A DNA stretch of 64,000 bases from an uncultured Candidatus Saccharibacteria bacterium (GTDB lineage Bacteria > Patescibacteriota > Minisyncoccia > UBA6257 > 2-01-FULL-56-20). The stretch is taken from NCBI GenBank assembly GCA_964456235.1, contig CAYWDX010000001.1, positions 125,935 to 189,934 on the forward strand, given 5' to 3'. The notes under the pieces are model-generated. The model saw only the letters and a list, made by a program, of their open reading frames with translations. It ran no database searches and was not told the origin of the DNA. The translations under genes and the position numbers were made by a program. Below, piece after piece: positions 197-44,932 of this stretch (position 1 is the first letter of the stretch; every line of letters starts with the position of its first letter).

Positions 197-280
197 CGAT
201 GAATGTAGATGAGCGTAATAAAGACGCCCTGTATAAAAATTATATCACAGCGACCAGGCACTTTCTGATATAATAAGGAT

Positions 281-818: not shown

Positions 819-1439
819 CTAAAGGTGGAGCAGTTGAATTTGTCCGGAGCTCGCCGTGTTCACGTTGGTGCCGGCTGCATAATTATTTCCCAATTGCCCG
901 CCCGCTGCATTATTTCCCGAACCGCCCGACCAATCGCTCTGGCCGGCCACATCACTCACGCTGCGCGTGAGGAATAGTTGATAGGTCGTCGAACTGCCGG
1001 TCCCCGATGCGTTCGCGACCACCGTTACCTTGATCGTCGAGGGGTCGAACGTGTTGCCGCTCGCAACCGTCGTCGCGTTGCCGCTTCCGTCGCGATAGAT
1101 GGTGTCGAGATAAAAGAAGCGGGTGTAGGTCGTGCTATTCACCGTCACCGATTGCCCCGTCGAGGTTCCGACCACCACAAACACCGAACTGCTCGGCGTT
1201 AAGTAATAGAGGTTCGCCGAGGTCGTCGCGAGCGTGAGTATGGTATTCCAATTCCCTGGCGCCCACGCCTGCACGTTGCCGAGCAGCTCACTCGCCAGTG
1301 AAGATTTCGCCTGGACCTGGCCCACCTGGTTATTTTGCAAAATGGCGGGCCGGATCAGCGATGCGGCAACCGCAAGAAGCACGGTGCCGATCCCGACGGC
1401 GATGAGAACCTCGATGATCGATTGTCCCTTATGGCGCAT
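819..1439 (-). CDS. Type IV pilin-like protein (minor pilin / pseudopilin)
   Basis: N-terminus MRHKG/QSIIEVLIAVGIGTVLL is a prepilin cleavage/methylation motif with Glu at +5 and a hydrophobic helix. Directly downstream of pilC. Confidence 0.8.
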   Translation of the reverse strand: MRHKGQSIIEVLIAVGIGTVLLAVAASLIRPAILQNNQVGQVQAKSSLASELLGNVQAWAPGNWNTILTLATTSANLYYLTPSSSVFVVVGTSTGQSVTVNSTTYTRFFYLDTIYRDGSGNATTVASGNTFDPSTIKVTVVANASGTGSSTTYQLFLTRSVSDVAGQSDWSGGSGNNAAGGQLGNNYAAGTNVNTASSGQIQLLHL

Positions 1440-1444
1440 GGCAA

Positions 1445-2650
1445 TTAGAATTGGCTCGTCAGTTGGTAGATCGGAACGATGATCGAGAGAGCGATCACGG
1501 CAACAATAATGCCCATAGCAATGAGGAGTGCCGGCTCGAGGAGCGAAACCAGCGCCCGAATATTCCCATCAATGTTCGTTTCGTAAAAATCTGAAAGCGT
1601 CACGAGCACTTCGTCGAGATGGCCGGCGCGTTCGGAAATTGCAATGAGGTTCGTGACCGATTTCGGGAACACTTCCTCGCGCCGAAATGATTCGCCAATC
1701 GTGAGCCCCTTTGCGAGTCCGTCGTGGGCAACGCGCTCGAGCGCCGCGGCAAAATCCCGATTCCCCACGGTCTGCGATGCAATCATAATGCTGTCAACGA
1801 TCGGCATACCGGCCTTCATGAGCGAACTCATCGTCGCCGCCATGCGTTGGACCGCGAGGTCGACATAAATCTTTCTGATGACCGGCAATGCGATCAGCAA
1901 TCGGTTCCATAACCGCTTGCCGGTTTCGGTTTTGTTGATGACGAACAGGAAGGCGATGATGACCGCGAAGAAGATGCCATAGAGCCAGAGGATGTTCGAT
2001 CCGATAAAGAGGCCGACACTGAACACGACGCGCGAGAAGAGCGGCGGGGTGATCGCGCTGCCGTTGAAAACGTTCGCGAGCTTGGGCAGCGCAAAGGTGA
2101 CCAGGAAGGTAAGGATCGCGAGCGCCATAACCAAAACAACGATGGGGTAGACGAGGGCCGATTTCACTTTGGCGCGGAGCTCTGCTTCTCGCTGGAGAGA
2201 AACCGAAAGTTCCTCGAATGTTTTCTGCAAATTGCCCGACGCCTCCGCCGCTTTCACGAGGTTTACGAATGTCGGCGAAAATGTTTCAGGATGTTTGGCG
2301 AACGCCGCGTAAAACGGCTGGCCACGCGTGAGGTTATTGTGCACCTCAAGCAAAAAATCGCGCATCGCCGGCTGGTCGAAATCCGCGATCAAAATATTGA
2401 TGGCCGAGAGGAGATCGGTGCCCACCCGCAACATAAGCGCGAGATATTTCGCGAGGAACACCTTATCGCTCACGCTGATGCCGCCCCAAAACTTCACCGA
2501 CTTCAGGCCCTTTTCCTTGATAGGTTTCACCGACAATGGCCTCATATCCTTCGCCGAGAGATAGCGGAGGACTTCATTCAAGGTGCTCGCTTCGAAATCT
2601 TCCTCAACGGAATTTCCGGCGCGATCGACGGCCAAATAGTGAAACAGCAT
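1445..2650 (-). CDS. pilC: Type IV pilus assembly platform protein PilC (GspF family)
   Basis: 401 aa, duplicated GspF-type domains with 3 TM segments. Sits between pilB and a pilin gene. Confidence 0.9.
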   Translation of the reverse strand: MLFHYLAVDRAGNSVEEDFEASTLNEVLRYLSAKDMRPLSVKPIKEKGLKSVKFWGGISVSDKVFLAKYLALMLRVGTDLLSAINILIADFDQPAMRDFLLEVHNNLTRGQPFYAAFAKHPETFSPTFVNLVKAAEASGNLQKTFEELSVSLQREAELRAKVKSALVYPIVVLVMALAILTFLVTFALPKLANVFNGSAITPPLFSRVVFSVGLFIGSNILWLYGIFFAVIIAFLFVINKTETGKRLWNRLLIALPVIRKIYVDLAVQRMAATMSSLMKAGMPIVDSIMIASQTVGNRDFAAALERVAHDGLAKGLTIGESFRREEVFPKSVTNLIAISERAGHLDEVLVTLSDFYETNIDGNIRALVSLLEPALLIAMGIIVAVIALSIIVPIYQLTSQF

Positions 2651-2675
2651 GTATCAATAGTATACCACGCGCCGA

Positions 2676-4397
2676 CTACTCCCGAATCACGCGCAGCACT
2701 TCTTCGAGCGTCGTTTGTGCGAGTCCCGCCTTCTCGAGACCGTCTTCGAACATCGTCTTCATGCCTTCTTTCCATGCCGTCGCGCGGAGTTCTTCCAAAC
2801 TGAAACGTTCAGCCATAATTTTTTCTTTGACGGCTTCGGTGATGCGGAAAATTTCGAAAATGCCGAGGCGGCCGCGATAGCCGGTCATGCCGCACGCGGA
2901 ACAACCCTTCCCGCGGAATTGCGTCTTCTGCACTTTGGCGCGCTCTGGCGGAATTTGCAGATCCTTCAACTGTTGCGCGACGGTTTTCATCGTGCTCTCA
3001 TCGACGTCGTACGAATAGATGCACGACTGGCAGATCTGGCGGACCAAGCGCTGTGCGACGACGAGGTTTAAAACCGAGACGACGAGGAACGGCGGCACTT
3101 TGAGATCGAAGAAGCGCGGGATCGAGGTCGGCGCGTCGTTCGTGTGGAGCGATGAAAGCAATAAGTGGCCCGTGAGCGCTGCCTGCACGCTGATTTCGGC
3201 GGTTTCGGCGTCTCGAATTTCGCCGACCATCACGATGTTCGGGTCCTGACGCAAAATCGCGCGCAGGCCCGAAGCGAAGGTGATCCCCGCCTGCGGGTTG
3301 ATTTGCATCTGGTTCACGTAGCGCATGTTGTATTCGATCGGGTCTTCAATCGTCGTCACGTTCACCTGCGGCTTGTTCAGAATATTCATGAGCGCGTAGA
3401 GCGTCGTCGTTTTACCGGAACCGGTTGGGCCGCAGGAAAGCACCATGCCGTAGGATTTTTTCAATTCTTCCGTAATGATCGCCGAATCGGTCTCGTTCAA
3501 ACCAAGTTCCTCGAGCGAAAGCGGTTTCTGCGTCGCTTCCAGCAAACGCATTTCAATTTTTTCACCGTAGAAGGTGGGGATCACCGATACGCGGATGTCG
3601 ATCGGCTGGTTCCCTACTTCGTAGCGGAAGCGCCCGTCCTGCGGCAAAAAGTGCTCGTCAATTTTCAAGCCGGCGAGCAATTTGAGGCGCGCGACGATCG
3701 CGGTGTGGACCGCTTTCGCGACGTCCATGATCTCGTACAAAATACCGTCGATGCGGTAGCGGATGAACATGGAATCTTCCAGGACTTCAATGTGGATGTC
3801 CGACGCGCGCGAAGCGAGGGCATACGAAAGGATGTTGTCCACGATGCCGACGATCGGCAACTCGCTCGCCGCCTCCTCCGGCGTCTTCGCGCGCGTCGCG
3901 AGGGACGCTTTGATGTTATCCTCGATCAGTTTTTTGAAATCCTGGCCCAATTCGTATCCGTAAATTGAGAAGCCGCGGTTCAAATCTTCCTGCGTCGCGA
4001 GCATGGGATGGATCTTCCCGTGCAAGCGCTCAGTGAGGAACGAAACCGTTTCCAAATCCGACGGGTCCACCATCGCCGCATCAAACGAGCCATCGGCCTC
4101 GCGCGCGAACACCACCACCTGGCGCTGGCGGGCGATGTCTTCCGGAAGGATCTTCACGACCGACGAATCAATTTTTTGCTTATCGAAATCTACCTGGGGC
4201 ACGCCAAGTTCGCGCGCGATCAGGCTTTGGATATAGTCCGCCGCCATGAAGCCGCCCGAAATAAGCACGTCGATAATGCTCTGATTTTTTCGCTCGGCGT
4301 CGACCGCAAGCTCGTCAAATTTTTCCGGAGAAAGAAGCCCTTCGGATGTCGCTAATTTTTTTATTTCAGAAACAGGCAGCGGGAGCCGCATACTCAT
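2676..4397 (-). CDS. pilB: Type IV pilus assembly ATPase PilB (GspE family)
   Basis: Walker A GPTGSGKTTT, Asp/His boxes, a C-terminal CSxC...CSACG tetracysteine motif and an N-terminal GSPII-type domain. Confidence 0.95.
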   Translation of the reverse strand: MSMRLPLPVSEIKKLATSEGLLSPEKFDELAVDAERKNQSIIDVLISGGFMAADYIQSLIARELGVPQVDFDKQKIDSSVVKILPEDIARQRQVVVFAREADGSFDAAMVDPSDLETVSFLTERLHGKIHPMLATQEDLNRGFSIYGYELGQDFKKLIEDNIKASLATRAKTPEEAASELPIVGIVDNILSYALASRASDIHIEVLEDSMFIRYRIDGILYEIMDVAKAVHTAIVARLKLLAGLKIDEHFLPQDGRFRYEVGNQPIDIRVSVIPTFYGEKIEMRLLEATQKPLSLEELGLNETDSAIITEELKKSYGMVLSCGPTGSGKTTTLYALMNILNKPQVNVTTIEDPIEYNMRYVNQMQINPQAGITFASGLRAILRQDPNIVMVGEIRDAETAEISVQAALTGHLLLSSLHTNDAPTSIPRFFDLKVPPFLVVSVLNLVVAQRLVRQICQSCIYSYDVDESTMKTVAQQLKDLQIPPERAKVQKTQFRGKGCSACGMTGYRGRLGIFEIFRITEAVKEKIMAERFSLEELRATAWKEGMKTMFEDGLEKAGLAQTTLEEVLRVIRE

Positions 4398-4400
4398 ATG

Positions 4401-4440
4401 ATAACAAAAAGTAACATCCCGGCCTACGCCGGGATGTTAC
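4401..4440 (-). terminator. Intrinsic terminator/attenuator between the major pilin gene and pilB
   Basis: Perfect 13-bp inverted repeat gtaacatcccggc/gccgggatgttac (4411-4440) with a 4-nt loop. On the minus strand it is followed by TTTTTGTTAT, which ends 3 nt before the pilB ATG. Confidence 0.75.
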
Positions 4441-4459
4441 CGAAACTATGAGGTGACGG

Positions 4460-5095
4460 TTAGAGCGTTAAACTCGTACCCTGCTCGTACATGAAATTGC
4501 TGCTGCCGCCGTCTGCGTTGTTCACGTCAGCCGTACCGGTGCTGTATTTCAAGCTCTCCATCTCCATACCAATCTTGTAGTTCGTGCCGCTCATGATGTA
4601 GGTGTAGAACATACCACAGCTTGAGAGGGCCGTCGTACCGCACGATGCGCTGCCCGGCGAGTTGATCGGATCAACCGGAAGTTGGCCGATCGGTGCGCCT
4701 GAGCTGATGGCGCCGAAGTTCACCGGAATCCATCCAGATCCCGTAATCACGCGCGAGCTCGAGTTGTTCAGCGACGTCGCCGTCGTGAGCCACTGCGCGC
4801 ACGAGGTGGTGGCTGCGTAGACGCCCGACTGGTTCGGGACATAGAAAGCTGTACCCGTCGCCATACTCGCATAGCAGATCGCCGCCGTTCCAAGGGAAGG
4901 CGAACTCACATCGGCGAGATAAAGCGCGAGGGCGCTCTTCAACGTTGCCGCATCCGAGACGCGGTTGGAATCCCGGGCCTGACGCAGAAGTTCGGCTGGG
5001 TTCAAGCTCAAAATGACCACGGTCGCGAGGACGGCAATGATAGCGATCACGATCAACAGTTCAATGAGCGTGAATGCCTTACGATTCTTTTTCAT
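4460..5095 (-). CDS. Type IV major pilin
   Basis: MKKNRKA/FTLIELLIVIAIIAVLA prepilin N-terminal methylation motif. 211 aa. Own promoter (TGaTATAAT, complement of 5142-5150) and a strong downstream hairpin. Confidence 0.9.
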   Translation of the reverse strand: MKKNRKAFTLIELLIVIAIIAVLATVVILSLNPAELLRQARDSNRVSDAATLKSALALYLADVSSPSLGTAAICYASMATGTAFYVPNQSGVYAATTSCAQWLTTATSLNNSSSRVITGSGWIPVNFGAISSGAPIGQLPVDPINSPGSASCGTTALSSCGMFYTYIMSGTNYKIGMEMESLKYSTGTADVNNADGGSSNFMYEQGTSLTL

Positions 5096-5161
5096 TATTG
5101 TCTTTGTTCTGGTGCAAAACCCGACCTTTATATATAGAACGATTATATCATGACGCGTTTT

Positions 5162-5989: not shown

Positions 5990-8944
5990 TCATTTTTTAC
6001 AGAGCTGGTTTAATTTTTTTCGCGTGAGCGTGCCGAAGATACCGGTTCCCGCGGTCAATTGCTGCGGAGTGAGAATGTCGGCGGCGAAAATTTCCTGGAA
6101 TGCGCCCACGGCGCGCGCCCTGGCGGGGCCAAAATATTCGGTTTCGTGCCCAGGCGACCCTGGCCCATCCGCCGCTACCTGCGTAAGAGAACTTTTGTTG
6201 AGTGTTTGTTGCAATAATTGCACGCTATTCCCCGTCGCGCCTTCCTGTAAATTTTTTCTGAATGCGGCGGCGCAGTTACTGCCGAGCTGAAGCGCTATCA
6301 ATTTTTGTTTGAGTGCGATGAGTTGCGATTTGAGATCTGGTGTTGGCGTTGCCGATCCCCGCGCCGCGGTCGTCGTACTCACGCCGAGCACTTTTCCATT
6401 TTCCTGGAGCGGCGGTGATTGATTGTTCTGATTGTGCGCGGGAGGATCTTGGGCGACCGAACTGCCACCGCTCGATCCACCGCTCGATGGAGCATTCACG
6501 GGCGGCGTTGATGTCGGCGACGAGGGCGTTGATGTTGGCGACGGTGGTGCCGGCGACACATTGCCGACCGGTTGAATCACGTCATCCATCGCACCGTCGC
6601 CATCATTATCCATCTTCAAAGCCAAGTCGCTCTGCGGATTTACAAAATGGAGCTGCGCCGTGGTGCTGGCGCTCGCGAGCGAGATCAACGGATACGTGAC
6701 CGTACTGCTTACCATGGCGCCGTCATATTCTTTTATCTGCATGCGGAATATTCCTGCGTCTGATGCGCGGCCCACGATGGTATAAAATTCCCCAGCCGGC
6801 AATGCTGGCACCAAGGCGAAAAGATTACTGCCGAAAACATCGTATTCAGCTCCTGGAATCGTAGCCATAAGGATTCCCGATGTCGCCATGCTAAGCTCGC
6901 GACCTTGGGAGTCGTAAATATCAAGCGTGACCGGGCCGTTGACGCTGACCTCGAAGTTTCGAGGGCGCAGACCCATGCAATCGGGAGGGTTCATGGAAAT
7001 TCCCCGAGGCAGCGTGGTCGTCCCCGTGCCCGCAAGAATGTCTTTAATAAATTCTAGCGGGATGGCGTCAGTTGCGAGCCCCATATGATCGGTCCCCGTT
7101 TGGTCGCCAAGGATGAAATACGTATTCGAACTATTTGCCAAATTCAGAGCGCTCAACTCCGGGATGGTGCCGTCACCAATATCGCGCCTTACTTCAACGA
7201 CACCGCCGTCATACAAATCAAACCCCACGATGGTCGGGCGGTTGCAGCCGATGATGTTGTATATACTCGAAACATGTATCGGCATCGCGTCCACGGCATC
7301 ATGAAAATTGTCGGCGAGATGCGAGAGCGGCGCATTCGGCCCCATCGAATGACCGTGGTCTAATATTTCATCTTTCCCATTTCTCAAATCATGAATGTAG
7401 TCGCCGGCGATAGTCGCGTAGCGAGCGCTCGGCAGCATTTCATAAATTGCCGGCATATTTTCGACAATCATTTTCGCTTCGCGCGGATTCAAGCCGAGAC
7501 CAAGCCAATTCATGCCAAGATCGTCGCCGTAGTTTAGCATTTGGTATGCGCGGGGCGTGCCCAGTTGCGGAACGCCGAGCAGGATAGCTTTGTCGATGTC
7601 CGTATGCGACGCAAGATATTCTTCGAGAAGCAGCCCGCCCATGCTGTGCGCGATCACGTTAACTTTTCCCGTCGGGGAAATCCTCACGGCGCGCGCAATC
7701 ACCGACGCAAGCGAATCCGTCGAACTCTCGATCGAGATGCGCCAGTCATAGGGCGCGGCGAAAAGATCGCGGCCTTCTGTATAGCCGTTTTGGACAAGCA
7801 TATCAATCAAATTTTGATACAACTTTTTCTCGAACGTGACGCCGAGAAAGCTCGTCGTAACGTTGCGCAGGATGTCGGTTGGGGAAAGTTGCCGATCGGC
7901 AAATGGCGTGCCGTCGGCATCGAGGGCTAAGAAATCTAAATAGCCATCATTTGATGAAGTGATCATCTGCGATGCACTCGGCCACGCTTCCCCGCCATCG
8001 GCGCGAACAAGACGCGAACCCATGATGCCGGGAATGATGACGACCGGCTCCCGAATCGCTTCTGGCAGCGTTGCGGTTGGTATATTGAAATCGATATTGC
8101 CTGGGCTCCGAAATTCAATCCAGGGCGAAGTGAACCCGCCGGTACGATCAACCGCTCGCGCGGCCCAATGATATGCCCCTGGCGCGAGGCCGGCCACCGT
8201 TCCCGACGCGACTTCACCGATGCCGACTGAATGAGTCGTGATCGTAGTGCTCCCCGATAATGGAACTGCGATCGGTTCGACTTCGATCTGCAAGGCGGCG
8301 GTGTCGGACGCGAAAAACATCTGCATGGTTGCGCCGAATGATACGGCACTCCCCGATGCCACGCCGTTCTCCGGAATCGTGGTCGTCGTGCCGAAAAAAT
8401 ATTGCGCGAGGTTTGTGAAGCCCACCGGGGATCCGACGCCGTCAGAATCACCGAAAACTAAATACGGATAAAATGCACCATCACTCCCCCGCGTGCCATA
8501 GACTTGCGCATCAAATGAACCGGAAGAAGAAAACTGAACGCTCACGCCGGTATCGCCCGCCCCGCCGTAATTAATATTCACGTCGTCGAACGTGTAGACC
8601 GCTTTTTGCCCAAGCTTCCCGGCCGCTTCCGCCGATGTTACGCAGTGTATATAAACCTGGTTTCCTCCGCGAAAGATGTTTACGAGCACGCCGGTATTGG
8701 GCGCGACCGGACAAAACGCGCTCACCCCTCGCTGCGAGTCATTTAAAATATTCATCTCCACTTGCAGATGGCTTACATGGCCCAGCGCATCGGCATATGC
8801 TGCGCCGAGCGGGCTCATGACAACGCTTGACGTTGCATCATCAAAATACTGGGCGTACAAATTCGCTGCATCCGCGTGATGCGTCCACAATAAAAACCAG
8901 GCGCCGGCCGCCACGCTGGCGACCGCAAAAAATTTCTTTTGCAT
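5990..8944 (-). CDS. Secreted multidomain protein: LCAT/PGAP1-like alpha/beta-hydrolase (lipase/acyltransferase), S/T/P linker, C-terminal peptidoglycan-binding domain
   Basis: Signal peptide MQKKFFAVASVAAGAWFLLWTHHADA. Oxyanion-type IIPGIMGS and nucleophile elbow AHSMGG. Linker PAPPSPTSTPSSPTSTPP..SSGGSSGGSS. C-terminal LQQTLN...YFGPARARAVGAFQ resembles PG_binding_1. Confidence 0.8.
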   Translation of the reverse strand: MQKKFFAVASVAAGAWFLLWTHHADAANLYAQYFDDATSSVVMSPLGAAYADALGHVSHLQVEMNILNDSQRGVSAFCPVAPNTGVLVNIFRGGNQVYIHCVTSAEAAGKLGQKAVYTFDDVNINYGGAGDTGVSVQFSSSGSFDAQVYGTRGSDGAFYPYLVFGDSDGVGSPVGFTNLAQYFFGTTTTIPENGVASGSAVSFGATMQMFFASDTAALQIEVEPIAVPLSGSTTITTHSVGIGEVASGTVAGLAPGAYHWAARAVDRTGGFTSPWIEFRSPGNIDFNIPTATLPEAIREPVVIIPGIMGSRLVRADGGEAWPSASQMITSSNDGYLDFLALDADGTPFADRQLSPTDILRNVTTSFLGVTFEKKLYQNLIDMLVQNGYTEGRDLFAAPYDWRISIESSTDSLASVIARAVRISPTGKVNVIAHSMGGLLLEEYLASHTDIDKAILLGVPQLGTPRAYQMLNYGDDLGMNWLGLGLNPREAKMIVENMPAIYEMLPSARYATIAGDYIHDLRNGKDEILDHGHSMGPNAPLSHLADNFHDAVDAMPIHVSSIYNIIGCNRPTIVGFDLYDGGVVEVRRDIGDGTIPELSALNLANSSNTYFILGDQTGTDHMGLATDAIPLEFIKDILAGTGTTTLPRGISMNPPDCMGLRPRNFEVSVNGPVTLDIYDSQGRELSMATSGILMATIPGAEYDVFGSNLFALVPALPAGEFYTIVGRASDAGIFRMQIKEYDGAMVSSTVTYPLISLASASTTAQLHFVNPQSDLALKMDNDGDGAMDDVIQPVGNVSPAPPSPTSTPSSPTSTPPVNAPSSGGSSGGSSVAQDPPAHNQNNQSPPLQENGKVLGVSTTTAARGSATPTPDLKSQLIALKQKLIALQLGSNCAAAFRKNLQEGATGNSVQLLQQTLNKSSLTQVAADGPGSPGHETEYFGPARARAVGAFQEIFAADILTPQQLTAGTGIFGTLTRKKLNQLCKK

Positions 8945-10049: not shown

Positions 10050-11087
10050 ATGCACGAATCTTTTTTCTACAACGCGCTCGCCAGTGCGGTAGACGGCGAT
10101 CGGAGAACATTAATCGGCATTAAGAAAAAATGTGGGTCATGGGAACGGGCCTATGCCCTGCACCGAACCATACGGCGCCCCGACGATGCATTCACCGTGC
10201 CGGACGCAGAAAAAGCATGGGCGGAGCTTGAGCGTTTCGATGTTCGCCTGGTGATGGCGGGCGAGCCAGATTACCCGACCCTGCTCAAAGAAATCATCGA
10301 TCCCCCATTCGGCCTCTATATATTAGGGAGGCTCCCAAAGGAGCCGTACTTTGCCGCAGTGGGCACCCGCCGGGCAACCCCGGAAGGAACGGCCACCATG
10401 CGCAGGTTTACTGCGACGCTCGCGCGCGCCGGATTTGCGATTGTGAGTGGCCTTGCCCTTGGCATGGATGCGGCGGCTCACGAGGGCTGCCTGGAGGGAG
10501 GCGGCACAACCATTGCCGTTTTGGCTGGCGGCTTGCACGATGTTTACCCCGGCGAAAACAAAAAGTTGGCAGAAAAAATTCTCGCGCAGGGCGGCGCATT
10601 GGTGTCGGAATATCCGATCGGATCACCGCCATATCCGAGCCGCTTCATCGAGCGCAATCGGATCATCGCCGGGCTTTCTCGCGGCGCGCTGATCATGGAA
10701 ACTCCTGAAAAGTCAGGTGCGCTCGCCACGGCGCGCCTCGCGATGGAAGAAAACCGCGACGTGTTTGTGGTACCTGGCGCGATTGCGAATAAAAACTATG
10801 AAGGGTCGCATGCGCTGATCCGTCAAGGGGCGGAGCTCGTGACGTCGCCCGAGCAAATTTTAGAATCGTATGGGATTATGCCGCGGGAAAATATAGATCG
10901 CGTAATCATCGATGCATCATCCGAAGAAAAGCAGGTTTTAAAAGCCCTGCGCGATACTCGCGCCCCACTCGACGTTGACAAAATTTTGGCGGCGACTAAA
11001 CTGGAACCCCAAACCGTGAACCGGACGCTCGCGTTCCTTCTTTCTAAAGATTTGATTAAAGAGCGCAACGGCAGGTATACAATATAA
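10050..11087 (+). CDS. dprA: DNA-processing protein DprA (Smf)
   Basis: Rossmann-like DprA core (GTRRATPEG...SGLALGMDAAAHEG...RNRIIAGLS). Conserved dprA-topA adjacency. Confidence 0.9.
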   Translation: MHESFFYNALASAVDGDRRTLIGIKKKCGSWERAYALHRTIRRPDDAFTVPDAEKAWAELERFDVRLVMAGEPDYPTLLKEIIDPPFGLYILGRLPKEPYFAAVGTRRATPEGTATMRRFTATLARAGFAIVSGLALGMDAAAHEGCLEGGGTTIAVLAGGLHDVYPGENKKLAEKILAQGGALVSEYPIGSPPYPSRFIERNRIIAGLSRGALIMETPEKSGALATARLAMEENRDVFVVPGAIANKNYEGSHALIRQGAELVTSPEQILESYGIMPRENIDRVIIDASSEEKQVLKALRDTRAPLDVDKILAATKLEPQTVNRTLAFLLSKDLIKERNGRYTI

Positions 11088-21042: not shown

Positions 21043-21060
21043 GATTACCAACTTTGAACC
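21043..21060. repeat. Left arm of the islet-flanking inverted repeat
   Basis: GATTACCAACTTTGAACC. The reverse complement of 25363-25382 reads GATTGCCACAACTTTGAACC. 12 nt are identical (CAACTTTGAACC); 17 nt are identical across the full arms, with 1 mismatch and a 2-nt indel. Confidence 0.5.
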
Positions 21061-21104
21061 TAAGTAAAATAAGGGTATCTTGGATCAAAGATGTCATCAA
21101 AATT

Positions 21105-22163
21105 ATGAAAACTAAGTCCTTAAACAAAAATTTACATTCAGCAAGAACTGCTAAAACAGATGAGTTTTACACTCAACTTATTGATATTGAAAAAGAGGTA
21201 AAACACTATAAAGATCAATTTCGCGGTAAGGTTGTGTATTGCAACTGTGATGATCCGTTTGAAAGCAATTTTTTCCGATATTTTGTGCTCAATTTCAACA
21301 AGCTTGGATTAAAACGACTTATCACAACTAGTTACAAACCATCGCCTATCGCTAACACGCAATTAGGTTTATTCGGGAATGATAAGACTCTCGCAAAGAT
21401 AAAAGGTCGCCCTAAGGTAACTGCTAACAAATTTATCATTAATGAAGCGAAAGATATTGACGGTGATGGCGAATTCAACTTGAAAGACGTTGCTAATCAG
21501 TTAAAGGCAAACAAAAATAACGAGTGGACACCCCTTGAAGGAGATGGTGATTTTCGTAGTGAGGAATCCATAAATTTACTTAAACAATCCGATATTATTG
21601 TAACTAATCCACCATTTTCTTTATTCCGTGAATATCTAGCACAATTAATTGAATACAATAAAAAGTTTTTGATTCTCGGCGATCAAAATGCGGTTACTTA
21701 CAAAGAACCTTTTGGATACATTCAAAATAACAAGTTGTGGCTTGGTTATGATAACGGCGGTACAAAATGGTTTCAAGTTCCAATGGATTACGACATACCA
21801 ACCGAATCAAGAAAGAAAATTGAAAAAGGTATCAAATATTTTAGCATGGGAAGAATTTTGTGGTTTACAAATCTTGATACTACAAAACGACACGATAACT
21901 TAGTACTGTATAAAAAATATGCACCAAAGGAATTTCCTAAATATGACAACTTTGATGTTATAAATGTTGATAAAGTTTCTGACATTCCGATGAACTACGA
22001 CGGTGTTATGGGTGTTCCGATCACATTTGTTGATAAATATAATCCTAAACAATTTGAAATTTTAGGCATAGCAAATTCCGCAAGATGGATTGGTTATAAG
22101 TGCCTCACCCTCATTAAGGGTAGAAAAATATATAATCGCATTTTAATTAAAAGAAAAAAATAA
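21105..22163 (+). CDS. N6-adenine DNA methyltransferase, EcoRI-methylase-like family
   Basis: N-terminal KTDEFYTQ motif and catalytic motif IV IIVTNPPFSLF (NPPF). Start moved to the ATG at 21105 because the track TTG at 21054 lies inside the repeat arm. Stop lies 1 nt before the next gene. Confidence 0.8.
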   Translation: MKTKSLNKNLHSARTAKTDEFYTQLIDIEKEVKHYKDQFRGKVVYCNCDDPFESNFFRYFVLNFNKLGLKRLITTSYKPSPIANTQLGLFGNDKTLAKIKGRPKVTANKFIINEAKDIDGDGEFNLKDVANQLKANKNNEWTPLEGDGDFRSEESINLLKQSDIIVTNPPFSLFREYLAQLIEYNKKFLILGDQNAVTYKEPFGYIQNNKLWLGYDNGGTKWFQVPMDYDIPTESRKKIEKGIKYFSMGRILWFTNLDTTKRHDNLVLYKKYAPKEFPKYDNFDVINVDKVSDIPMNYDGVMGVPITFVDKYNPKQFEILGIANSARWIGYKCLTLIKGRKIYNRILIKRKK

Positions 22164-22164
22164 T

Positions 22165-23256
22165 ATGAAAATTAATCTACATAAAATTCAAATCCGTAAA
22201 GTTTTTGGTGGGTATAAGGATAGTGCCGAAGAGGGAGTCGTTGCTTATGGCGGTAAGCTGGATATTCGACCAAAATACCAGCGAGAATTCGTTTACAAAC
22301 CTGAACAACGCAATGCTGTTATAAATACTGTTCAAAATGAATTTCCACTTAACGTCATGTATTGGATAGAAAATAGTGCTGGTAAATATGAGTTGCTCGA
22401 TGGTCAACAGCGCACTTTAAGTATTTGTCAGTATGTTAATGGTGACTATTCAATTAATGACCGCTATTTCCATAATCTGACCAATGAAGAAAAAGATCAG
22501 ATTCTTGACTACGAACTCATGATCTATTTTTGTGATGGAACAGATAAGGAGCGTATTAAATGGTTCGAGGTGATTAATACGGCTGGTGAAAAACTTACAC
22601 CGCAAGAGTTGCTTAATGCCGTGTATACCGGATCATGGCTCTCAGATGCAAAATTAAAATTTAGTAAATCAGGCTGTGCCGCATATCTTTTGGCGAATGA
22701 CGATGGACAGTTAGTAAGTGGTTCTCCAATTCGGCAGGAATATCTTGAAACTGCATTATCTTGGATCAATAATGGCGATGTTGCTGGCTATATGGCAAAG
22801 CATCAGCACGACAAAAATGCTGAAAAGTTATGGGAATATTTCCAAAATGTAATTGCGTGGGTACGAAAAAATTTCACAAATTATCGTAAAGAAATGGCAA
22901 GTGTGAATTGGGGCGAGCTATACAACGAATTCAAAGATAAAAAGCTAACTGCTACCAAAATTGAAGCAGAGATTAGCAAATTAATGCAGGATGAGGACGT
23001 TACCAAAAAGTCGGGTATCTATCCGTATGTTTTGATGAGGCAAGAAAGGTATCTTTCGATTCGTGCCTTCACAGACAAAATGAAACGTGAAGCATTTGAG
23101 AGGCAAAATGGTAAGTGTTCATTTTGTAAGAAAAAATTTGATATTTCCGAAATGGAAGCCGATCATATTTCACCTTGGCACGAAGGTGGAAAAACCATAG
23201 CTCAAAATTGCCAAATGTTGTGCAAGCAGGACAATCGCACTAAATCTGGAAAATAA
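22165..23256 (+). CDS. DUF262 (ParB-like/GmrSD N-terminal) domain protein fused to a C-terminal HNH nuclease
   Basis: DUF262 signatures IRPKYQREFVY and LLDGQQRTLSI. C-terminal HNH: CSFCKK...ADHISPWHEGGKT..NCQMLCKQDNRTK. Confidence 0.8.
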   Translation: MKINLHKIQIRKVFGGYKDSAEEGVVAYGGKLDIRPKYQREFVYKPEQRNAVINTVQNEFPLNVMYWIENSAGKYELLDGQQRTLSICQYVNGDYSINDRYFHNLTNEEKDQILDYELMIYFCDGTDKERIKWFEVINTAGEKLTPQELLNAVYTGSWLSDAKLKFSKSGCAAYLLANDDGQLVSGSPIRQEYLETALSWINNGDVAGYMAKHQHDKNAEKLWEYFQNVIAWVRKNFTNYRKEMASVNWGELYNEFKDKKLTATKIEAEISKLMQDEDVTKKSGIYPYVLMRQERYLSIRAFTDKMKREAFERQNGKCSFCKKKFDISEMEADHISPWHEGGKTIAQNCQMLCKQDNRTKSGK

Positions 23257-23263
23257 AAACTTT

Positions 23264-24388
23264 TTAGGCTGGTTGAACAAATTTAACTCGAGGTCTTAAG
23301 TGGGAAAATTTTCTCCAAGCATCTTTTACACCCATTTCATGTAGTTCGTGTGCAACCCTTCCAGCAACTATAGCCGGAGATACATTAATCTCCTTTGCGA
23401 ACTTGATAATACGATCATCAGCAGAAACTCTGTCACCAGCTTTAAACTCATTAAACTTTGCATCAGAAATCAAAGTTTTACGTGCAAATTCATCGGCTTC
23501 TTTTTCTTTATCCGCTAATTCACTGTTTTCTCTTTTCTCAAACTCTATAAACTGGTCCTTTTTACCATGTTTAAGTAAATGGCCAATTTCATGAAAGAAA
23601 GTGAACCAAAAACGATCTATGTGAGCACCCCTCAAACTTACTTGTATAAGTGCTTTATCAGCTGAAAGCCATCTTGTAGCACCATCAACAAAAGTATTTG
23701 AAAAATAAGGCACAAAAGCAACAGCAACGCCAGATTCTGAACAAATCTCTTGTATGCCTTTTTCAATACCAGTAACATCTTTTTTGGTTAATGCCCGCAA
23801 ACTTTCAATTGAGTTTGTCAGCTTATCTTTATCAAAAGATTTAGTCTGTATTTTGTTTCCCTCGATCTCACCACATCTAAGCCATGCGGCAAGACATTCA
23901 TGCGACAAATTACTCTGTTTAGATTGTCTAAATGCAACCTGATGAGTTTTTTGGACAAATCCTAAAGAGCTTACACCAAAGAAGTTTAAGAGATTAAACA
24001 CCTTTTCTTTTGAATCTTTTGATTTTGGTACATAATTCCATTTTGCCAACTCTTTATAGCAATCAAATTTATCTAAGGAAGGCAACTCCTTTTCTAGCTT
24101 TTTATCTCTTTCAATTCTTGCCAATGTTTCCTGATAGCTTCTTTCAAGGCTATTCCAAAACACAGGAGACATGCCGAATACAGCAGAAAGCTTTAACGCT
24201 GTTTCCGGGGTAATAGGGTTCTTTCCCTGAATAATCTCATTGATTGTCTTTGGAGTAAGATCTGTTCTTGCGGCAAGATCAGTCTGGGTCATGTTTACGT
24301 TATCCAATAACTCCTTAAGAGTATTACCTGGATGAATTGCGATATTTGGATTGAAATCGTTTGTAGCCATATGTTTAGTGGTAATCAA
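23264..24388 (-). CDS. HigA-type XRE antitoxin fused to an ImmA/IrrE (M78) zinc metallopeptidase domain
   Basis: N-terminal HigA-like HTH (IHPGNTLKELLDNVNMTQTDLAARTDLTPKTINEIIQGKNPITPETALKL). C-terminal HEIGH zinc motif in an ImmA/IrrE context. Overlaps higB by 14 nt. Confidence 0.8.
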   Translation of the reverse strand: MITTKHMATNDFNPNIAIHPGNTLKELLDNVNMTQTDLAARTDLTPKTINEIIQGKNPITPETALKLSAVFGMSPVFWNSLERSYQETLARIERDKKLEKELPSLDKFDCYKELAKWNYVPKSKDSKEKVFNLLNFFGVSSLGFVQKTHQVAFRQSKQSNLSHECLAAWLRCGEIEGNKIQTKSFDKDKLTNSIESLRALTKKDVTGIEKGIQEICSESGVAVAFVPYFSNTFVDGATRWLSADKALIQVSLRGAHIDRFWFTFFHEIGHLLKHGKKDQFIEFEKRENSELADKEKEADEFARKTLISDAKFNEFKAGDRVSADDRIIKFAKEINVSPAIVAGRVAHELHEMGVKDAWRKFSHLRPRVKFVQPA

Positions 24389-24689
24389 TTATTTCAATAA
24401 TCATGACCTTGCTTATCGACTTTAGATCTTGAGGATCTCCATTTAAATAGGTGATGATTATTCGATACGGATGTTTGATATCTAAAGCATAACATTTTTT
24501 CAGCTTACCCTTTAACGGGTGCAGTCTGATTTGAGGAAGCTTCGATATATCAGACAGACTCTCCGCAGACAATAACTCATTAATCCTCTGGACTATCAAT
24601 TCTGCCTGAAGATGGCCGTATCTCCTCTTTAATAAGGCACCATCTTCGCAGGTTTTCTTGAGTTTTTTGTCTTTAAAGGAGAGTTCCAT
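24375..24689 (-). CDS. higB: HigB-family (RelE-fold) toxin, plasmid maintenance system killer type
   Basis: 104 aa. N-terminal FKDKKLKK, central LHPLKGKLKKCYALDI..PYRIIITY, C-terminal ...IIDYH, all characteristic of this family. Toxin-first gene order as in higBA. Confidence 0.75.
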   Translation of the reverse strand: MELSFKDKKLKKTCEDGALLKRRYGHLQAELIVQRINELLSAESLSDISKLPQIRLHPLKGKLKKCYALDIKHPYRIIITYLNGDPQDLKSISKVMIIEIIDYH

Positions 24690-40512: not shown

Positions 40513-41448
40513 CTACGCCATCTTCACCTCGTCGTAAATATTCAAAACTGCCTTCACCGCGTCGCCGGCCGAAATGTTATTTTGCCGATAGATGCCATCC
40601 GTCACATCCCCTATCGCCCAAATGCCCGGCGCGGACGTCCGCTGCGTGCGCGCATCAACTTTAATGTCGCCGCGGTCATCAAGATCGACAACGCCTTTCA
40701 CGAAATCAGAATTTGGGATAAGGCCGACCTCGACGAACACTCCTTCGACGGCGAGCTCCTTCGATTCATTCGTTTTCACATCGTGATAGCGCACGCCCGT
40801 CACCTGCGCGGAACCGAGCACTTCGTCCACGACGCCATTCCAAATGATTTCCACTTTCGGATTGTTGCGTACCTTGTCTTGTGAGACCGGATCGCCCTTC
40901 AAAACTTCCGAACGGATCATCAAATAAATCTTTTTTGCGTAGGGGTGCAAATCAAGCACGCTCTCAAGCGCCGAATTGCCGCCGCCAACCACGACAACGG
41001 TTTTGTTGTCGAAAAGCGGCGCGTCGCACGTGGAACAATAGACCACGCCCCGGCCCTCGTGTTCTTTTTCCCCCGGGACATTCAAACGCTTGCGGCTGCT
41101 GCCCGACGCGATCAAAACATATTTTGTTTCGTGCGTTTTCCCGTTGCGCGTCAAAACGCGGTAGCCGCCGGCCGCGCCAGCGGCGCCTGCCATTGTTTCG
41201 ACGCCCGTCACGAGGTCATCGTCAATAATTTCGATCCCACTTTGCGCGCGAATATGTTCCTCGAGCGCTTTTGCCAGATCATAGCCCGTGAGCGATTTGG
41301 TTCCGATCCAATTTTCGATGCCGCCCGAAATTGCCGACTGGCCGCCGAAGCTGTCGGTGATCAATAACGTTTTAATTTTTTTGCGGGCTGCGTAGACGCC
41401 GGCAGAAACCCCGCCTGGTCCCGCGCCCACAATGATCAGGTCATACAT
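40513..41448 (-). CDS. trxB: Thioredoxin-disulfide reductase
   Basis: GAGPGG FAD motif, redox-active CSTCDA, NADPH motif VVGGGNSA. Confidence 0.93.
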   Translation of the reverse strand: MYDLIIVGAGPGGVSAGVYAARKKIKTLLITDSFGGQSAISGGIENWIGTKSLTGYDLAKALEEHIRAQSGIEIIDDDLVTGVETMAGAAGAAGGYRVLTRNGKTHETKYVLIASGSSRKRLNVPGEKEHEGRGVVYCSTCDAPLFDNKTVVVVGGGNSALESVLDLHPYAKKIYLMIRSEVLKGDPVSQDKVRNNPKVEIIWNGVVDEVLGSAQVTGVRYHDVKTNESKELAVEGVFVEVGLIPNSDFVKGVVDLDDRGDIKVDARTQRTSAPGIWAIGDVTDGIYRQNNISAGDAVKAVLNIYDEVKMA

Positions 41449-41466: not shown

Positions 41467-41706
41467 TTATTTTTGCGGAACGAGCAAATCCTCGAGCGTT
41501 TTTTTGTCAAAACCGACGAGTATTTGGCCATCAACATCAATCACCGGCACGCCCATCTGGTGAGATTTCGCGAACATCTCCTCGCGCGCCTTTAAATCCG
41601 ACGCGACGTTGTGTTCCGTGTACGCAATCCCATTTTTCGTGAAAAAATCTTTCGCCATCTTGCAGTAGACGCAGGTTGGGGTGCTGTAAATGGTTACGGT
41701 CGCCAT
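41467..41706 (-). CDS. Glutaredoxin-like (NrdH/YruB-type) small redox protein
   Basis: 79 aa. TIYSTPTCVYCKMAKDFF has a CxxC in a thioredoxin fold context. Adjacent to trxB. Confidence 0.85.
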   Translation of the reverse strand: MATVTIYSTPTCVYCKMAKDFFTKNGIAYTEHNVASDLKAREEMFAKSHQMGVPVIDVDGQILVGFDKKTLEDLLVPQK

Positions 41707-41996: not shown

Positions 41997-43469
41997 CTAT
42001 CGTACGAAGAGATAATCAGGATTGGTCACCTTTCCCGAAGCGAACTTGCCCAAATAAGTGCCGCTTGCGTCAAATATCTGGACGTTGTTGCTGGTATTAT
42101 CCGAAACATAGATCGTTCCATTTGCATCAACCGTCACGCCAGAGGTTCCCCTAAACTGTCCGGTACTCGTGCCATACGACCCGAATTTCATAAGGAAATT
42201 TCCACTCGAATCAAATTTCTGAACGCGATCCTGGTTACCGCTACCGCCGTCTGCGACATAAATATTGTTACCTGAATCGACGGCGAGGCCACGGATGTTA
42301 AGGAACTGTCCATCGCTCGAACCATATGAGCCGAACTGCGCGAGGTAGTTACCGCCAGAGTCAAACTTTTCAACCCGCAAATGTGAAATGTTCCCGCTGT
42401 CAACCGCATATACATTGCCACTTGAATCAACGCCGATGCCGGAAACACCGTTGAATTGGCCGTCGCCCGATCCTGAAGTGCCGAACTGAAGCACATAGTT
42501 TCCATTCGAATCGAATTTCTCTACCCGATGGTTCCCTCCATCGCCCGCATAGACATATCCATCGAGGCTAGTACCAATACCCAACTGGGACCCCCCTGCC
42601 GCGCTAAATTGGCCGTTCCCACTTCCTGACGACCCAGACTGGAGCAGATAGTTCCCATTTGAATCAAATTTCTGGATGCGGTGATTCCCTCCGTCTTGCA
42701 CCCAGATATTGCCGGTAGAATCCACCGTCACGCCCCACGCAAAGCTCAATTGGCCGTTCCCACTTCCTGAAGAACCGACGGTGGCGAGATAATTCCCGTT
42801 GTAATCAAATTTTTGGACGCGGCTAGCGCTGAAATCTGCGACCCACACGCACGGACCGCCGTTTGCGCATCCATAATCTTCCTTAATGAGCGTGAGTGAA
42901 GTGCCTTTCGCGTAGAGGAAAGGGATGGGACCGCCGCCGCCCGTTTCTTGTCCAGAGTATTTCACCGACTGTACATTTGCCGTAATTTCATAATTCGTCC
43001 CATCGGTCGCATAGGCGTAGTAAGAACCGGTCGAGGTCTGGTTTTTCGGGTCAACCGGGAGAAGTCCGATCGGTGAGCCGCCGGTCACTTTGGTGAGGTC
43101 AACTGGAATCCATCCCGTACCATCAACGTTGCGATAATTTTGCGAAGAAACACACCAGTAGGTTTGCCCAGCGGGAAGGGTAACCAAGCCGAGCGATGAA
43201 CAGGTGCTGGTCTGTGCACCGGAGAGCGTAGGATCGGGCACTGAAACGTAAATAGTGTTCGCGGCTCCCAGCGACGTGATGTTTTTGGCGAGCGGGAGGA
43301 CTGAATCCAGTTGGCTGATGTCAGCAATGCGCGTGCTGTCGTTCGCCTGGAGCGAAAGCTCGGACGGGTTGAGGAAATAAATGACGGTGAGCGCGCCAGC
43401 CGCGATGACCGCGATCACGATCAAAATTTCTGGCAACGTGAAACCGCGCCGGCGAATAATATTCTTCAT
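41997..43469 (-). CDS. Type IV pilin-like protein fused to a six-bladed NHL-repeat beta-propeller
   Basis: Prepilin motif MKNIIRRRG/FTLPEILIVIAVIA and a pilin-like head. Then six repeats ending (V/I)(Q/E)KFDxxGN(Y/F)L with GSxGSGxGQF spacers (NHL repeats). Confidence 0.85.
   Translation of the reverse strand: MKNIIRRRGFTLPEILIVIAVIAAGALTVIYFLNPSELSLQANDSTRIADISQLDSVLPLAKNITSLGAANTIYVSVPDPTLSGAQTSTCSSLGLVTLPAGQTYWCVSSQNYRNVDGTGWIPVDLTKVTGGSPIGLLPVDPKNQTSTGSYYAYATDGTNYEITANVQSVKYSGQETGGGGPIPFLYAKGTSLTLIKEDYGCANGGPCVWVADFSASRVQKFDYNGNYLATVGSSGSGNGQLSFAWGVTVDSTGNIWVQDGGNHRIQKFDSNGNYLLQSGSSGSGNGQFSAAGGSQLGIGTSLDGYVYAGDGGNHRVEKFDSNGNYVLQFGTSGSGDGQFNGVSGIGVDSSGNVYAVDSGNISHLRVEKFDSGGNYLAQFGSYGSSDGQFLNIRGLAVDSGNNIYVADGGSGNQDRVQKFDSSGNFLMKFGSYGTSTGQFRGTSGVTVDANGTIYVSDNTSNNVQIFDASGTYLGKFASGKVTNPDYLFVR
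42000..42857 (-). repeat. Six tandem, diverged ~135-150 nt coding repeats (NHL blades)
   Basis: The peptide periodicity VQKFDYNGNYL / IQKFDSNGNYL / VEKFDSNGNYV / VEKFDSGGNYL / VQKFDSSGNFL / VQIFDASGTYL is mirrored at DNA level (for example the recurring ccattcgaatcgaatttct / cccatttgaatcaaatttct strings). Confidence 0.75.
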
Positions 43470-43527
43470 GAATAAATTATACCATACGATGCCGCGCAGG
43501 CGCGGCTACGACTTGAATGTAACGTTG

Positions 43528-44298
43528 CTATTTCAACGCCGCATCAATCACCTGCGCGAAATCGGCGTAGGGTTGCGCGCCGAGAACCGATGTTCCATTC
43601 ACGAAAAACGATGGCGTAGAATTGATTCCTGCTGCGGTGGCAGCCGCTCTCTCCTGTGCGACGAGCGACGCATTTTTATTCGTGTCGACACAGCTCGTGA
43701 AGGTCGTCATATTCAATCCCAAACCCTGGGCGAGCTTTACGAAGAGCGCCCGGTTATAGAAACCGTCGTTTTCCCCGCCCCCCTTCTGTTCATCACCCAC
43801 CTTGGCGGCGTAGAGCGCGTCGTGATATGGCCACAACTTGCCCTGATCGTTTGCGCATTCTGCTGCCTGCGCCGCCGCCGTTGATTCCGGCCCCAGGAAC
43901 GGGAAATTGCGGAACACTATTTTCACTTTTCCGCTGTTCACGTAATTCGCGATGATCTGCGGCTCCGTTTGCGAAAAGAATTGCGCGCAGAACGGGCACT
44001 GGTAATCGCCGTATTCGATGATCGTGACCGGCGCATTTTGTGCTCCGAGAATGGCGTCGCGCGCGCCGAGTTTCATGATCGCCTCGTTCGTTGCAAGAGC
44101 GCCCGCGCCTGCGCCGTTGCCGCCGCTGGGCGTCACGTTCGGGCGATACATCGTAGAAAAAACGAGCGCTCCGCCGATCACGGCGGCGGCAACTAAAACA
44201 CTGATAGCGAGAAAACGGTCGCGGGGCGCCTCGATCGGATGCGCCGGGTGCGAAGGCATCACCGGACCCATATTTTCGTGATTCCGCATTTCGTCCAT
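43528..44298 (-). CDS. DsbA-family thiol:disulfide oxidoreductase, membrane-anchored
   Basis: TM anchor FLAISVLVAAAVIGGALVF and active site YGDYQCPFCAQF. Start moved to the internal ATG (MDEMRNHE...) to avoid overlap with the divergent dedA. Confidence 0.85.
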   Translation of the reverse strand: MDEMRNHENMGPVMPSHPAHPIEAPRDRFLAISVLVAAAVIGGALVFSTMYRPNVTPSGGNGAGAGALATNEAIMKLGARDAILGAQNAPVTIIEYGDYQCPFCAQFFSQTEPQIIANYVNSGKVKIVFRNFPFLGPESTAAAQAAECANDQGKLWPYHDALYAAKVGDEQKGGGENDGFYNRALFVKLAQGLGLNMTTFTSCVDTNKNASLVAQERAAATAAGINSTPSFFVNGTSVLGAQPYADFAQVIDAALK

Positions 44299-44341
44299 GA
44301 AACCAGCATAGCACACCGGCGCTGTTCTATAATGAAAGGCA

Positions 44342-44932
44342 ATGCCGATCGCAACTTCCCTTGCCCATTGGCTCATAACGTATCGTTACCCGATCGCCTA
44401 CCCTCTCGCGATCGCGGAGGGGCCGGTCCTTATGATGATCGCGGGCTTCCTCGTGCGCACCGGCTTTCTCGATTTTTGGCCGATCTATTTTATTTTGATG
44501 GCGGGCGATCTCACCGGCGACATCGTGTGGTACAAAATCGGGCAGCATGGGGCGCGTCGATTCATCGACCGGTTTGGAAAATTTTTCAGCGTTTCCGAAG
44601 CCCACGTACTCCGCGCGGAAAAATTTTTCCAAGAGCATCAAACAAAAATTCTTTTTGTCTCAAAAATTACGATGGGCCTGGGATTTGCGCTCGCGACATT
44701 GATGGCCGCCGGCGCCGCGCGCGTTCCCTTCAAAAAATATATGATCGTGAACGCGCTCGGCCAGTTCATTTGGACGGGCATTCTCATGGCGATCGGCTTT
44801 TTCCTCGGCAATCTCTACACGCTCGTCGATAAAAGCCTGCGTTGGGGCTTCGTCACGGCCATCATCATCATGTTTGCGCTCATGATGATGGGATTTGCGA
44901 AGTACGTGCGGAAACGGGTGTCGGAGATGTAA
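44342..44932 (+). CDS. DedA-family (VTT/SNARE-associated domain) membrane protein
   Basis: 196 aa, multi-TM, with the DedA pattern AEGPVLMMIAGFL...GDLTGDIVWY.IG..G. Confidence 0.8.
   Translation: MPIATSLAHWLITYRYPIAYPLAIAEGPVLMMIAGFLVRTGFLDFWPIYFILMAGDLTGDIVWYKIGQHGARRFIDRFGKFFSVSEAHVLRAEKFFQEHQTKILFVSKITMGLGFALATLMAAGAARVPFKKYMIVNALGQFIWTGILMAIGFFLGNLYTLVDKSLRWGFVTAIIIMFALMMMGFAKYVRKRVSEM

Follow-up and report, generated by a model that had tools for sequence, protein, structure and literature searches.

A modular type IV pilin with a C-terminal six-bladed NHL propeller as a candidate pilus-presented binding subunit in a Patescibacterium

The locus described here raises the question of whether a type IV pilin that carries an entire beta-propeller is a component of pili, and what such a protein would present there. 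The gene lies in a 64,000-nucleotide stretch, hereafter the window, of contig CAYWDX010000001.1 from assembly GCA_964456235.1, assigned to an uncultured Candidatus Saccharibacteria bacterium (GTDB lineage Patescibacteriota, Minisyncoccia). It is a complete modular pilin gene at 41997..43469 (-), which in the list of open reading frames (ORFs) runs from an ATG start to a TAG stop at 41997-41999 and encodes 490 amino acids (aa). Its product consists of three parts, namely a prepilin signal, a pilin module (aa 10-194) and a six-bladed NHL propeller (aa 208-490), and a 13-aa linker with two cysteines (aa 195-207) bridges the last two. This arrangement is that of a modular pilin in the sense of Raynaud et al. 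(2021), and we consider it probable that the protein presents a binding propeller on type IV pili, acting as a pilus-presented binding subunit. The same protein, identical, is found on two independent assemblies, the NCBI contig (323,180 bp) and a Logan contig from SRR12313479, so the fusion is not an assembly artefact.

The N-terminus reads MKNIIRRRG followed by FTLPEILIVIAVIAAGALTVIYF, that is, a basic leader ending in Gly and then the hydrophobic alpha1N segment, as the original prediction for this DNA had proposed. This leader (aa 1-9; 43443..43469 (-)), with a predicted PilD cut after Gly9, scores above the cut-offs of both Pfam N_methyl PF07963 (22.9 bits, cut-off 21.2) and TIGR02532 (26.2 bits, cut-off 16.3), and G-1, F+1 and E+5 are invariant among the aligned family members; by these profiles, the protein is predicted to carry the class III signal expected of a type IV pilin. 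The pilin module that follows (aa 10-194; 42888..43442 (-)) comprises alpha1, a five-stranded head with a probable Cys90-Cys106 disulfide and the C-terminal motif YAKGTSLTL. A pilin head had thus been correctly foreseen in the original prediction, with a size of about 170 aa that has to be revised to about 185 aa for the mature head (10-194).

The structure of the fusion was modelled with AlphaFold2 (AF2) on a multiple sequence alignment of 47 sequences, made of orthologues and added head homologues; this run replaced an earlier one on 7 sequences, in which the propeller alone was modelled well and the head had a predicted local distance difference test score (pLDDT) below 50. The 47-sequence model has a mean pLDDT of 91 and a predicted TM-score (pTM) of 0.78, with a lower-confidence stretch at residues 170-207. 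In this model the alpha1 helix spans residues 12-61, broken at the family-invariant Asn34-Pro35, and the head strands lie at 72-75, 103-107, 152-155, 160-165 and 185-189, mostly with pLDDT above 90, a predicted helix-on-beta-sheet arrangement typical of type IV pilins. Further, the head-family profile hits the solved structures of major pilins and pseudopilins (Geobacter PilA-N, Thermus PilA4, S. sanguinis PilE1, Neisseria PilE and GspG), the alignment covering alpha1 and part of the head up to about position 99. Of the four cysteines of the fusion, one pair (90/106) lies in the head and the other (201/207) in the linker, and the protein probably contains two disulfides, Cys90-Cys106 and Cys201-Cys207. 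The linker itself (aa 195-207, IKEDYGCANGGPC; 42849..42887 (-)), in which Cys201 and Cys207 would close a loop, is kept in 5 of 7 orthologues, its two cysteines being either both there or both missing.

The origin of the head becomes apparent at the other end of the window, where a compact type IV pilus operon with two pilin genes, PilB and PilC is found at 819-5095 (-). Its leading gene (4460..5095 (-); extended -10 box at 5142-5150 by sequence pattern) encodes a 211-aa type IV pilin, the presumptive major pilin, with an N_methyl match of 36.3 bits. BLASTP aligned residues 7-194 of the fusion with this pilin end to end (39% identity, E 9e-39), and the 211-aa pilin stops at ...YEQGTSLTL precisely where the fusion has ...YAKGTSLTL and continues into the linker. 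By sequence comparison, the fusion head is therefore a full-length paralogue of the pilin linked to PilB and PilC, with Glu5 retained; together with the profile matches to solved pilins, this end-to-end paralogy indicates a complete pilin module and not merely a prepilin-type signal. The remaining genes of the operon encode a PilB-type assembly ATPase (T2SSE + MshEN; 2676..4397 (-); Pfam T2SSE E 5e-117), presumed to be the assembly motor, a PilC-type platform protein (1445..2650 (-); Pfam T2SSF E 1.3e-47), and a second pilin-like protein of a different class that begins GQSIIEVLIAVGIG... (819..1439 (-); N_methyl 21.7 bits). The organism accordingly encodes, within the window, the ATPase and platform components of the assembly machinery that a type IV pilin requires.

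The C-terminal part (aa 208-490; 42000..42848 (-)) is a six-bladed NHL beta-propeller according to Pfam, sequence matches in the PDB, the AF2 model and Foldseek, in line with the complete six-blade propeller originally proposed. Pfam NHL PF01436 scored 91.5 bits (cut-off 20), and phmmer against PDB sequences retrieved the NHL domains of TRIM71, Thin, TRIM2/3 and Brat, with a best E of 5e-57. The model displays 24 strands in six four-stranded blades (aa 213-259, 264-310, 315-357, 365-407, 415-457, and 462-489 closed by strand 208-212), where strand 208-212 (VWVAD) is by sequence pattern the D strand of blade 6, giving a 3+1 Velcro closure of the ring. Foldseek superimposed the propeller on the Drosophila Thin NHL domain (6xg7) with an rmsd of 1.1 A over 260 columns and a target TM of 0.85, consistent with a closed six-bladed NHL fold; a monomer model was a check suggested with the original prediction, and the propeller folds in it. 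The six motifs reported there recur verbatim, VQKFDYNGNYL at 218, IQKFDSNGNYL at 265, VEKFDSNGNYV at 316, VEKFDSGGNYL at 366, VQKFDSSGNFL at 416 and VQIFDASGTYL at 463, although they had been taken for blade ends and are in fact blade starts, each spanning the A strand, the A-B loop and the B strand.

The D-to-A loops of the propeller (aa 213-216, 260-263, 311-314, 358-364, 408-414 and 458-461), which occupy an equivalent position in all six blades, are the least conserved propeller segments among orthologues, with mean identities of 0.27-0.54 against 0.45-0.77 for the other loops; they vary in length, and two carry insertions found in the fusion protein alone. By propeller convention, the 'top' face, with which TRIM-NHL domains bind their ligands, is the one where the D-A loops are located. 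Judged from sequence, the best-supported role for a propeller with such a variable binding face would be that of an adhesin or a lectin-like module.

Fusions of this kind are not restricted to one organism, as a survey that had been suggested alongside the original prediction confirmed. Full-length orthologues with 41-52% identity were identified in metagenomes and metagenome-assembled genomes (MAGs): P0008, P0010, P0030, P0057, P0091 and P0094, of which P0057 is HVM76585.1 from Candidatus Paceibacterota, named 'SMP-30/gluconolactonase/LRE family protein' at NCBI. Mean column identity among orthologues is 0.61 in the head, 0.59 in the linker and 0.62 in the propeller; since the head is conserved as strongly as the propeller, it is not a degenerate anchor. 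Searches with head and junction profiles added the junction-spanning fragments P0336, P0341, P0349, P0355, P0366 and P0374, and a degenerate DNA pattern for the linker D[YF]GCxx.GPCVW returned one locus from JGI metagenome contigs, another copy of P0057. A profile search with the full-length alignment against 1.84 billion representatives gave 240,027 matches, the best 150 all being giant multi-NHL proteins, and this search provides no count of pilin-NHL fusions. The family is consequently best described as rare: about ten full-length members came to light, along with several fragments across the junction, figures that do not amount to an exact count.

The head is far more widespread than this particular fusion. 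A scan for the head motif [YFN]R[NK][VT][DN]GTGW, using one genome per GTDB species, yielded 54 loci, nearly all in Patescibacteria-labelled MAGs (Paceibacterota, Parcubacteria, Wolfe-, Harrison- and Colwellbacteria, and Saccharibacteria-labelled genomes), together with a few contigs binned as Acidobacteriota, Omnitrophota or Thermococci. The pilin-NHL combination occurs in two of them (L004 and L005), and about 42 of the 54 encode proteins of at least 360 aa with other C-terminal modules. The commonest is a LamG/ConA-like lectin (about 24 of the 54, by the motif ..DDVRIYNRALS..), for which PF13385 was confirmed in P0125 and P0129; further modules on the same head include FGE-sulfatase-like, Gly_rich_2, Fib_succ_major, Fibrinogen_C, fn3, Flg_new_2 and Big_7. 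Every extension begins directly after [YF]ExG[ST]xLx[LI], the literal C-terminus of the stand-alone pilins of the family, and a DYG linker is common to the NHL group and several LamG members. As a separate observation, head-family pilins occur in L005 (CAWHNV010000045.1), L013, L034/L040 and L037, whose contigs were assigned to bins of Acidobacteriota, Bryobacterales, Omnitrophota and Thermococci; these may be mis-binned Candidate Phyla Radiation (CPR) contigs or cases of horizontal transfer.

Further fusions stand out at single loci. One metagenome contig (L001, 10001-14377) carries three adjacent modular pilins, of which two are divergent pilin-NHL proteins encoded in convergent orientation and the third joins the head to a different propeller-like repeat (NPHTNT.WV..). 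Genes for an integrase, a relaxase-like protein and a DUF87 ATPase adjoin them, a hint that these pilin genes travel with mobile elements, and the L005 pilin-NHL gene adjoins a recombinase-like gene. Furthermore, in the 608-aa NHL protein P0038, from an ENA metagenome, the N-terminal 200 aa are 36% identical (E 2e-27) to the pilin-like protein encoded at 819-1439, and the protein carries an extra C-terminal domain besides its NHL propeller; NHL propellers have hence been grafted independently onto two different pilin classes.

On these grounds, the following course of events can be proposed for the fusion. After membrane insertion, a PilD-type peptidase would cleave the prepilin behind Gly9 and N-methylate it, a Dsb-type oxidase would form its disulfides, and the PilB/PilC machine would polymerise it through the alpha1 helix into the type IV pili of the cell. 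The propeller would then be exposed on the filament, at the tip if the fusion enters first or sparsely along the shaft, and would serve as a ligand-binding (adhesin) module whose D-to-A loop face may recognise a glycan or protein on the surface of a host cell or substrate. More broadly, the gene is part of a Patescibacteria family whose single pilin scaffold bears interchangeable binding modules, which fits a host range or attachment specificity set by the choice of module, and the Patescibacteria type of the organism makes attachment the natural role to read into such a protein.

Several observations weigh against this proposal or limit it. Pro13 (mature position +4; codon 43455-43457) gives FTLPE in place of the family FTL[IV]E, and Pro at +4 was seen in no other aligned orthologue or head relative; the gene lies 37 kb from the pilus operon in a non-conserved neighbourhood; and no PilD (Peptidase_A24) gene was found among the ORFs scanned in the 64-kb window, where PilM/N/O and PilT were likewise not seen. 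The label 'adhesin' draws on analogy and on the variability pattern, because NHL propellers have partners as different as RNA and proteins, or are themselves enzymes. The position of the fusion within the filament, tip or shaft, is likewise a proposal. The original prediction had placed it at the tip on the argument that it would be too bulky for the fibre body, an argument that finds no support here: a rough area estimate suggests that, at a radius of about 55 A, one propeller per subunit is geometrically not impossible, so that the location is not settled by bulk alone, and the fusion, whose head is a full-length paralogue of the PilB-linked pilin and keeps Glu5, may also be incorporated along the fibre. 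A shaft location of modular pilins was not excluded by Raynaud et al. (PMC8179133) either.

How the fusion might act otherwise depends on what is made of its two halves. In one alternative, the class III signal and alpha1 would serve only for export and membrane anchoring, and the protein would be a binding protein anchored at the cell surface, or part of a short pseudopilus or 'bindosome'-like assembly, outside pili. The Sulfolobus bindosome, formed by archaeal sugar-binding proteins with prepilin signals, offers a comparison; many Patescibacteria proteins have pilin-type N-termini, the fusion gene is not linked to the pilus operon, and a bulky cargo could impede polymerisation. Against such an anchor stand the conservation of the entire pilin head, and not of the signal alone, as strongly as that of the propeller, the full-length paralogy of this head with the PilB-linked pilin, and the fact that those modular pilins studied by experiment either form part of the pilus or depend on it, so we regard it as unlikely. 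A further variant, which we hold to be unlikely, accepts the pilus and extends its design: since the head is a major-pilin paralogue that retains Glu5 and the whole packing module, the fusion, rather than being a rare tip subunit, would enter the shaft as a co-polymer or make up a filament by itself, a propeller-studded multivalent lectin fibre, as part of a Paceibacterota cassette system with a fixed junction (..YExG[ST]xLx[LI] plus a DYG linker). Were this so, host specificity would be set or switched by swaps of LamG, FGE-sulfatase-like, Fib_succ_major, NHL and other propeller modules, in some cases carried by mobile elements, much as phages exchange receptor-binding proteins.

Other doubts concern the propeller. 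It could be an enzyme of the SMP-30/gluconolactonase/lactonase, lyase or PAL type, displayed on the pilus or the surface and acting on the host envelope or a diffusible substrate, as the name of orthologue HVM76585.1, a weak match to Pfam SGL PF08450 (30.3 bits, cut-off 26.3) and the prediction of peptidase-type modular pilins (PMC8179133) might suggest. This match is partial, however, covering only profile positions 136-216 of 246, and the model of the scytonemin NHL PEP-CTERM protein ScyF (NF035926) gave 209.6 bits against a cut-off of 350, the fusion ending with the last propeller strand and having no PEP-CTERM. The propeller contains three His, which fall within the repeat motif and are not kept in orthologues, and the invariant propeller residues are all Gly, Asp, Asn or Phe of the repeat framework, with no invariant residue outside it. 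Taken together, these results argue against a conserved catalytic site and, since the closest folds are the non-enzymatic TRIM-NHL domains, an enzymatic function appears quite improbable; membership in the SMP-30/gluconolactonase/LRE and ScyF families was accordingly rejected. We consider it highly improbable that the propeller captures DNA or RNA for uptake by a competence pilus in a nucleotide-scavenging organism. The closest solved relatives do bind RNA on the top face, the NHL domains of TRIM71 and Brat are RNA binders, DNA-binding minor pilins are known in other bacteria (PMC8179133), and DprA is encoded in the window. Nevertheless, the propeller is acidic (8 K and 8 R against 21 D and 2 E; net charge -7, pI 4.8), which argues against nucleic-acid binding, and its putative binding loops are not conserved among orthologues, which would be unexpected in a generic DNA receptor. 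The DprA gene (DNA-processing protein A) itself lies at 10050-11087 (+), between the pilus region and topA, and fits a capacity for natural competence.

The favoured reading of the fusion as a pilus-presented binding subunit finds its closest precedents among modular pilins and propeller adhesins. Raynaud et al. (2021; PMC8179133) defined modular pilins, catalogued over 1,200 such proteins with 264 architectures, many of them from CPR phyla, and showed that S. sanguinis PilB, which bears a vWA domain, is an adhesin; in their Dataset S1 a pilin with NHL (IPR012902 + 3x IPR001258) is listed exactly once, and in Dataset S2 NHL repeats appear as N-terminal modules of PilY1 adhesins. S. sanguinis PilC was in turn found to be a lectin-bearing modular pilin of a tip complex (Shahin et al., 2023; PMC9934059). 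As in these two proteins, the fusion begins with a pilin module that bears a class III signal, from which a short linker leads to a C-terminal binding domain that is not pilus-specific, and the proposed role is likewise the presentation of an adhesin by the filament. It differs in that its module is a six-bladed NHL propeller instead of vWA or a ConA-like lectin, its host is a Patescibacterium, and its pilin module is a full-size paralogue of a presumptive major pilin, unlike the small or distorted minor-pilin modules of S. sanguinis; moreover, the streptococcal proteins have been studied experimentally, whereas the fusion is known here from sequence.

Closer in lineage is PilX2, a minor pilin of the Saccharibacterium Nanosynbacter lyticus TM7x whose C-terminal part is a seven-bladed RCC1 propeller; efficient binding to the host reportedly depends on it, whereas the extrusion of filaments does not (Grossman et al., 2024; PMC11623550). 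Both are Patescibacteria pilins with a C-terminal beta-propeller, and the host-binding role of PilX2 is the function proposed for the fusion; the RCC1 and NHL repeat families are nevertheless unrelated, PilX2 has no predicted PilD signal peptide where the fusion has a canonical one, and its gene lies in a pilus locus whereas the fusion gene is solitary. The PilY1/PilC tip adhesins of diderm type IVa pili are also beta-propeller adhesins presented by type IV pili, yet PilY1 is not a pilin and docks on the minor-pilin complex through its own C-terminal propeller (IPR008707); assignment of the fusion to this family was rejected, as it has no IPR008707-type Pfam match and its N-terminus is of the prepilin type. 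The Patescibacteria LamG-type modular pilins (N_methyl + PF13385) have a head homologous to that of the fusion (40-47% identity) with an identical end motif, followed in some of them by the DYG linker, and carry a ConA-like lectin where the fusion has NHL; PF13385 is among the 15 most frequent extra domains of modular pilins, with several representatives from CPR phyla (PMC8179133). The fold of the propeller, in turn, is shared with the TRIM-NHL domains (Thin, TRIM71/LIN-41, TRIM2/3, Brat; 39% identity to Thin) and with the PknD sensor propeller, but TRIM-NHL domains are intracellular RNA- or protein-binding domains and PknD is a kinase sensor, whereas the fusion propeller would be extracellular, and is acidic and pilin-borne. 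The fusion therefore belongs to an already described class, as a rare NHL member marked by its module, its canonical PilD-type signal and its presumptive-major-pilin paralogue as carrier, and no new principle is established by it; what is new here is the paralogy of the pilin module, the many modules at one junction in Patescibacteria, and the D-to-A loops as the least conserved part of the propeller.

With regard to expression, an extended -10 box (TGGTATAAT; 43476..43484 (-)) lies 6 nt before the ATG, as had been proposed; a promoter scan at the fusion gene did not call a full -35/-10 promoter. Boxes of the type TGNTATAAT are enriched in the window, with 6 observed and 0.84 expected, and three of the six are located 6-8 nt before a start codon without a Shine-Dalgarno sequence (266-274(+)/ATG 281; 33677-33685(-)/ATG 33668; 43476-43484(-)/ATG 43469), suggesting that the organism uses leaderless mRNAs. 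The gene looks monocistronic because it has a promoter-like box of its own and a downstream spacer of about 290 nt; its mRNA may thus be monocistronic and leaderless or nearly so. At the DNA level, Tandem Repeats Finder (TRF) detected no tandem repeat in the fusion gene, and the five full-length blades are 53-69% identical to each other in nucleotide sequence, which makes slippage or recombination between blades unlikely; phase variation and the variation in repeat number raised earlier were rejected for this reason.

The upstream neighbour of the gene encodes a membrane-anchored DsbA-like oxidoreductase (43528..44376 (-); Pfam Thioredoxin_4 and DSBA), possibly the oxidase for the pilin disulfides, in an adjacency that is not conserved. 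The DsbA and DedA genes named in the original prediction are present, and its 'Trx/Grx pair' corresponds instead to a glutaredoxin (41467-41706) and a thioredoxin-reductase-type flavoprotein (40513-41448). This DsbA/DedA/Grx/TrxB neighbourhood is absent around the orthologues examined (contexts L001, L004 and L005), and was therefore not accepted as evidence for a functional unit with the fusion.

Elsewhere in the window, a gene at 5990-8944 (-), flanked by a pseudouridine synthase gene and by tRNA genes and lying some 0.9 kb upstream of the pilus operon, encodes a secreted-looking protein of 984 aa with LCAT/alpha-beta-hydrolase (lipase-type) and peptidoglycan-binding domains, which could be an enzyme attacking the host envelope; L004 has a partial homologue (6158-7393) close to its pilin-NHL orthologue. 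A defence- or mobile-looking cluster at 21054-24689 includes an EcoRI-type adenine methylase, a GmrSD-N/HNH endonuclease, a regulator with HTH and IrrE/M78 peptidase domains and a HigB-like toxin. The apparently ORF-poor region at 26.2-28.2 kb holds ordinary genes, PAP2 and NusG, and an Rfam scan of the window found tRNAs alone.

How the ultrasmall CPR/Patescibacteria find and hold their hosts is largely obscure outside a few cultivated Saccharibacteria, and pilins bearing grafted modules are the best current candidates for host recognition. The locus studied here provides a fully canonical example, with head and propeller confidently modelled, from the poorly studied Paceibacterota side, and its carrier accepts, at a single fixed junction, no fewer than eight or nine different binding modules. 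The region aa 195-490 offers a soluble construct for glycan-array or host-envelope tests, and the module repertoire could be used as a genomic read-out for predicting attachment specificities in these organisms.

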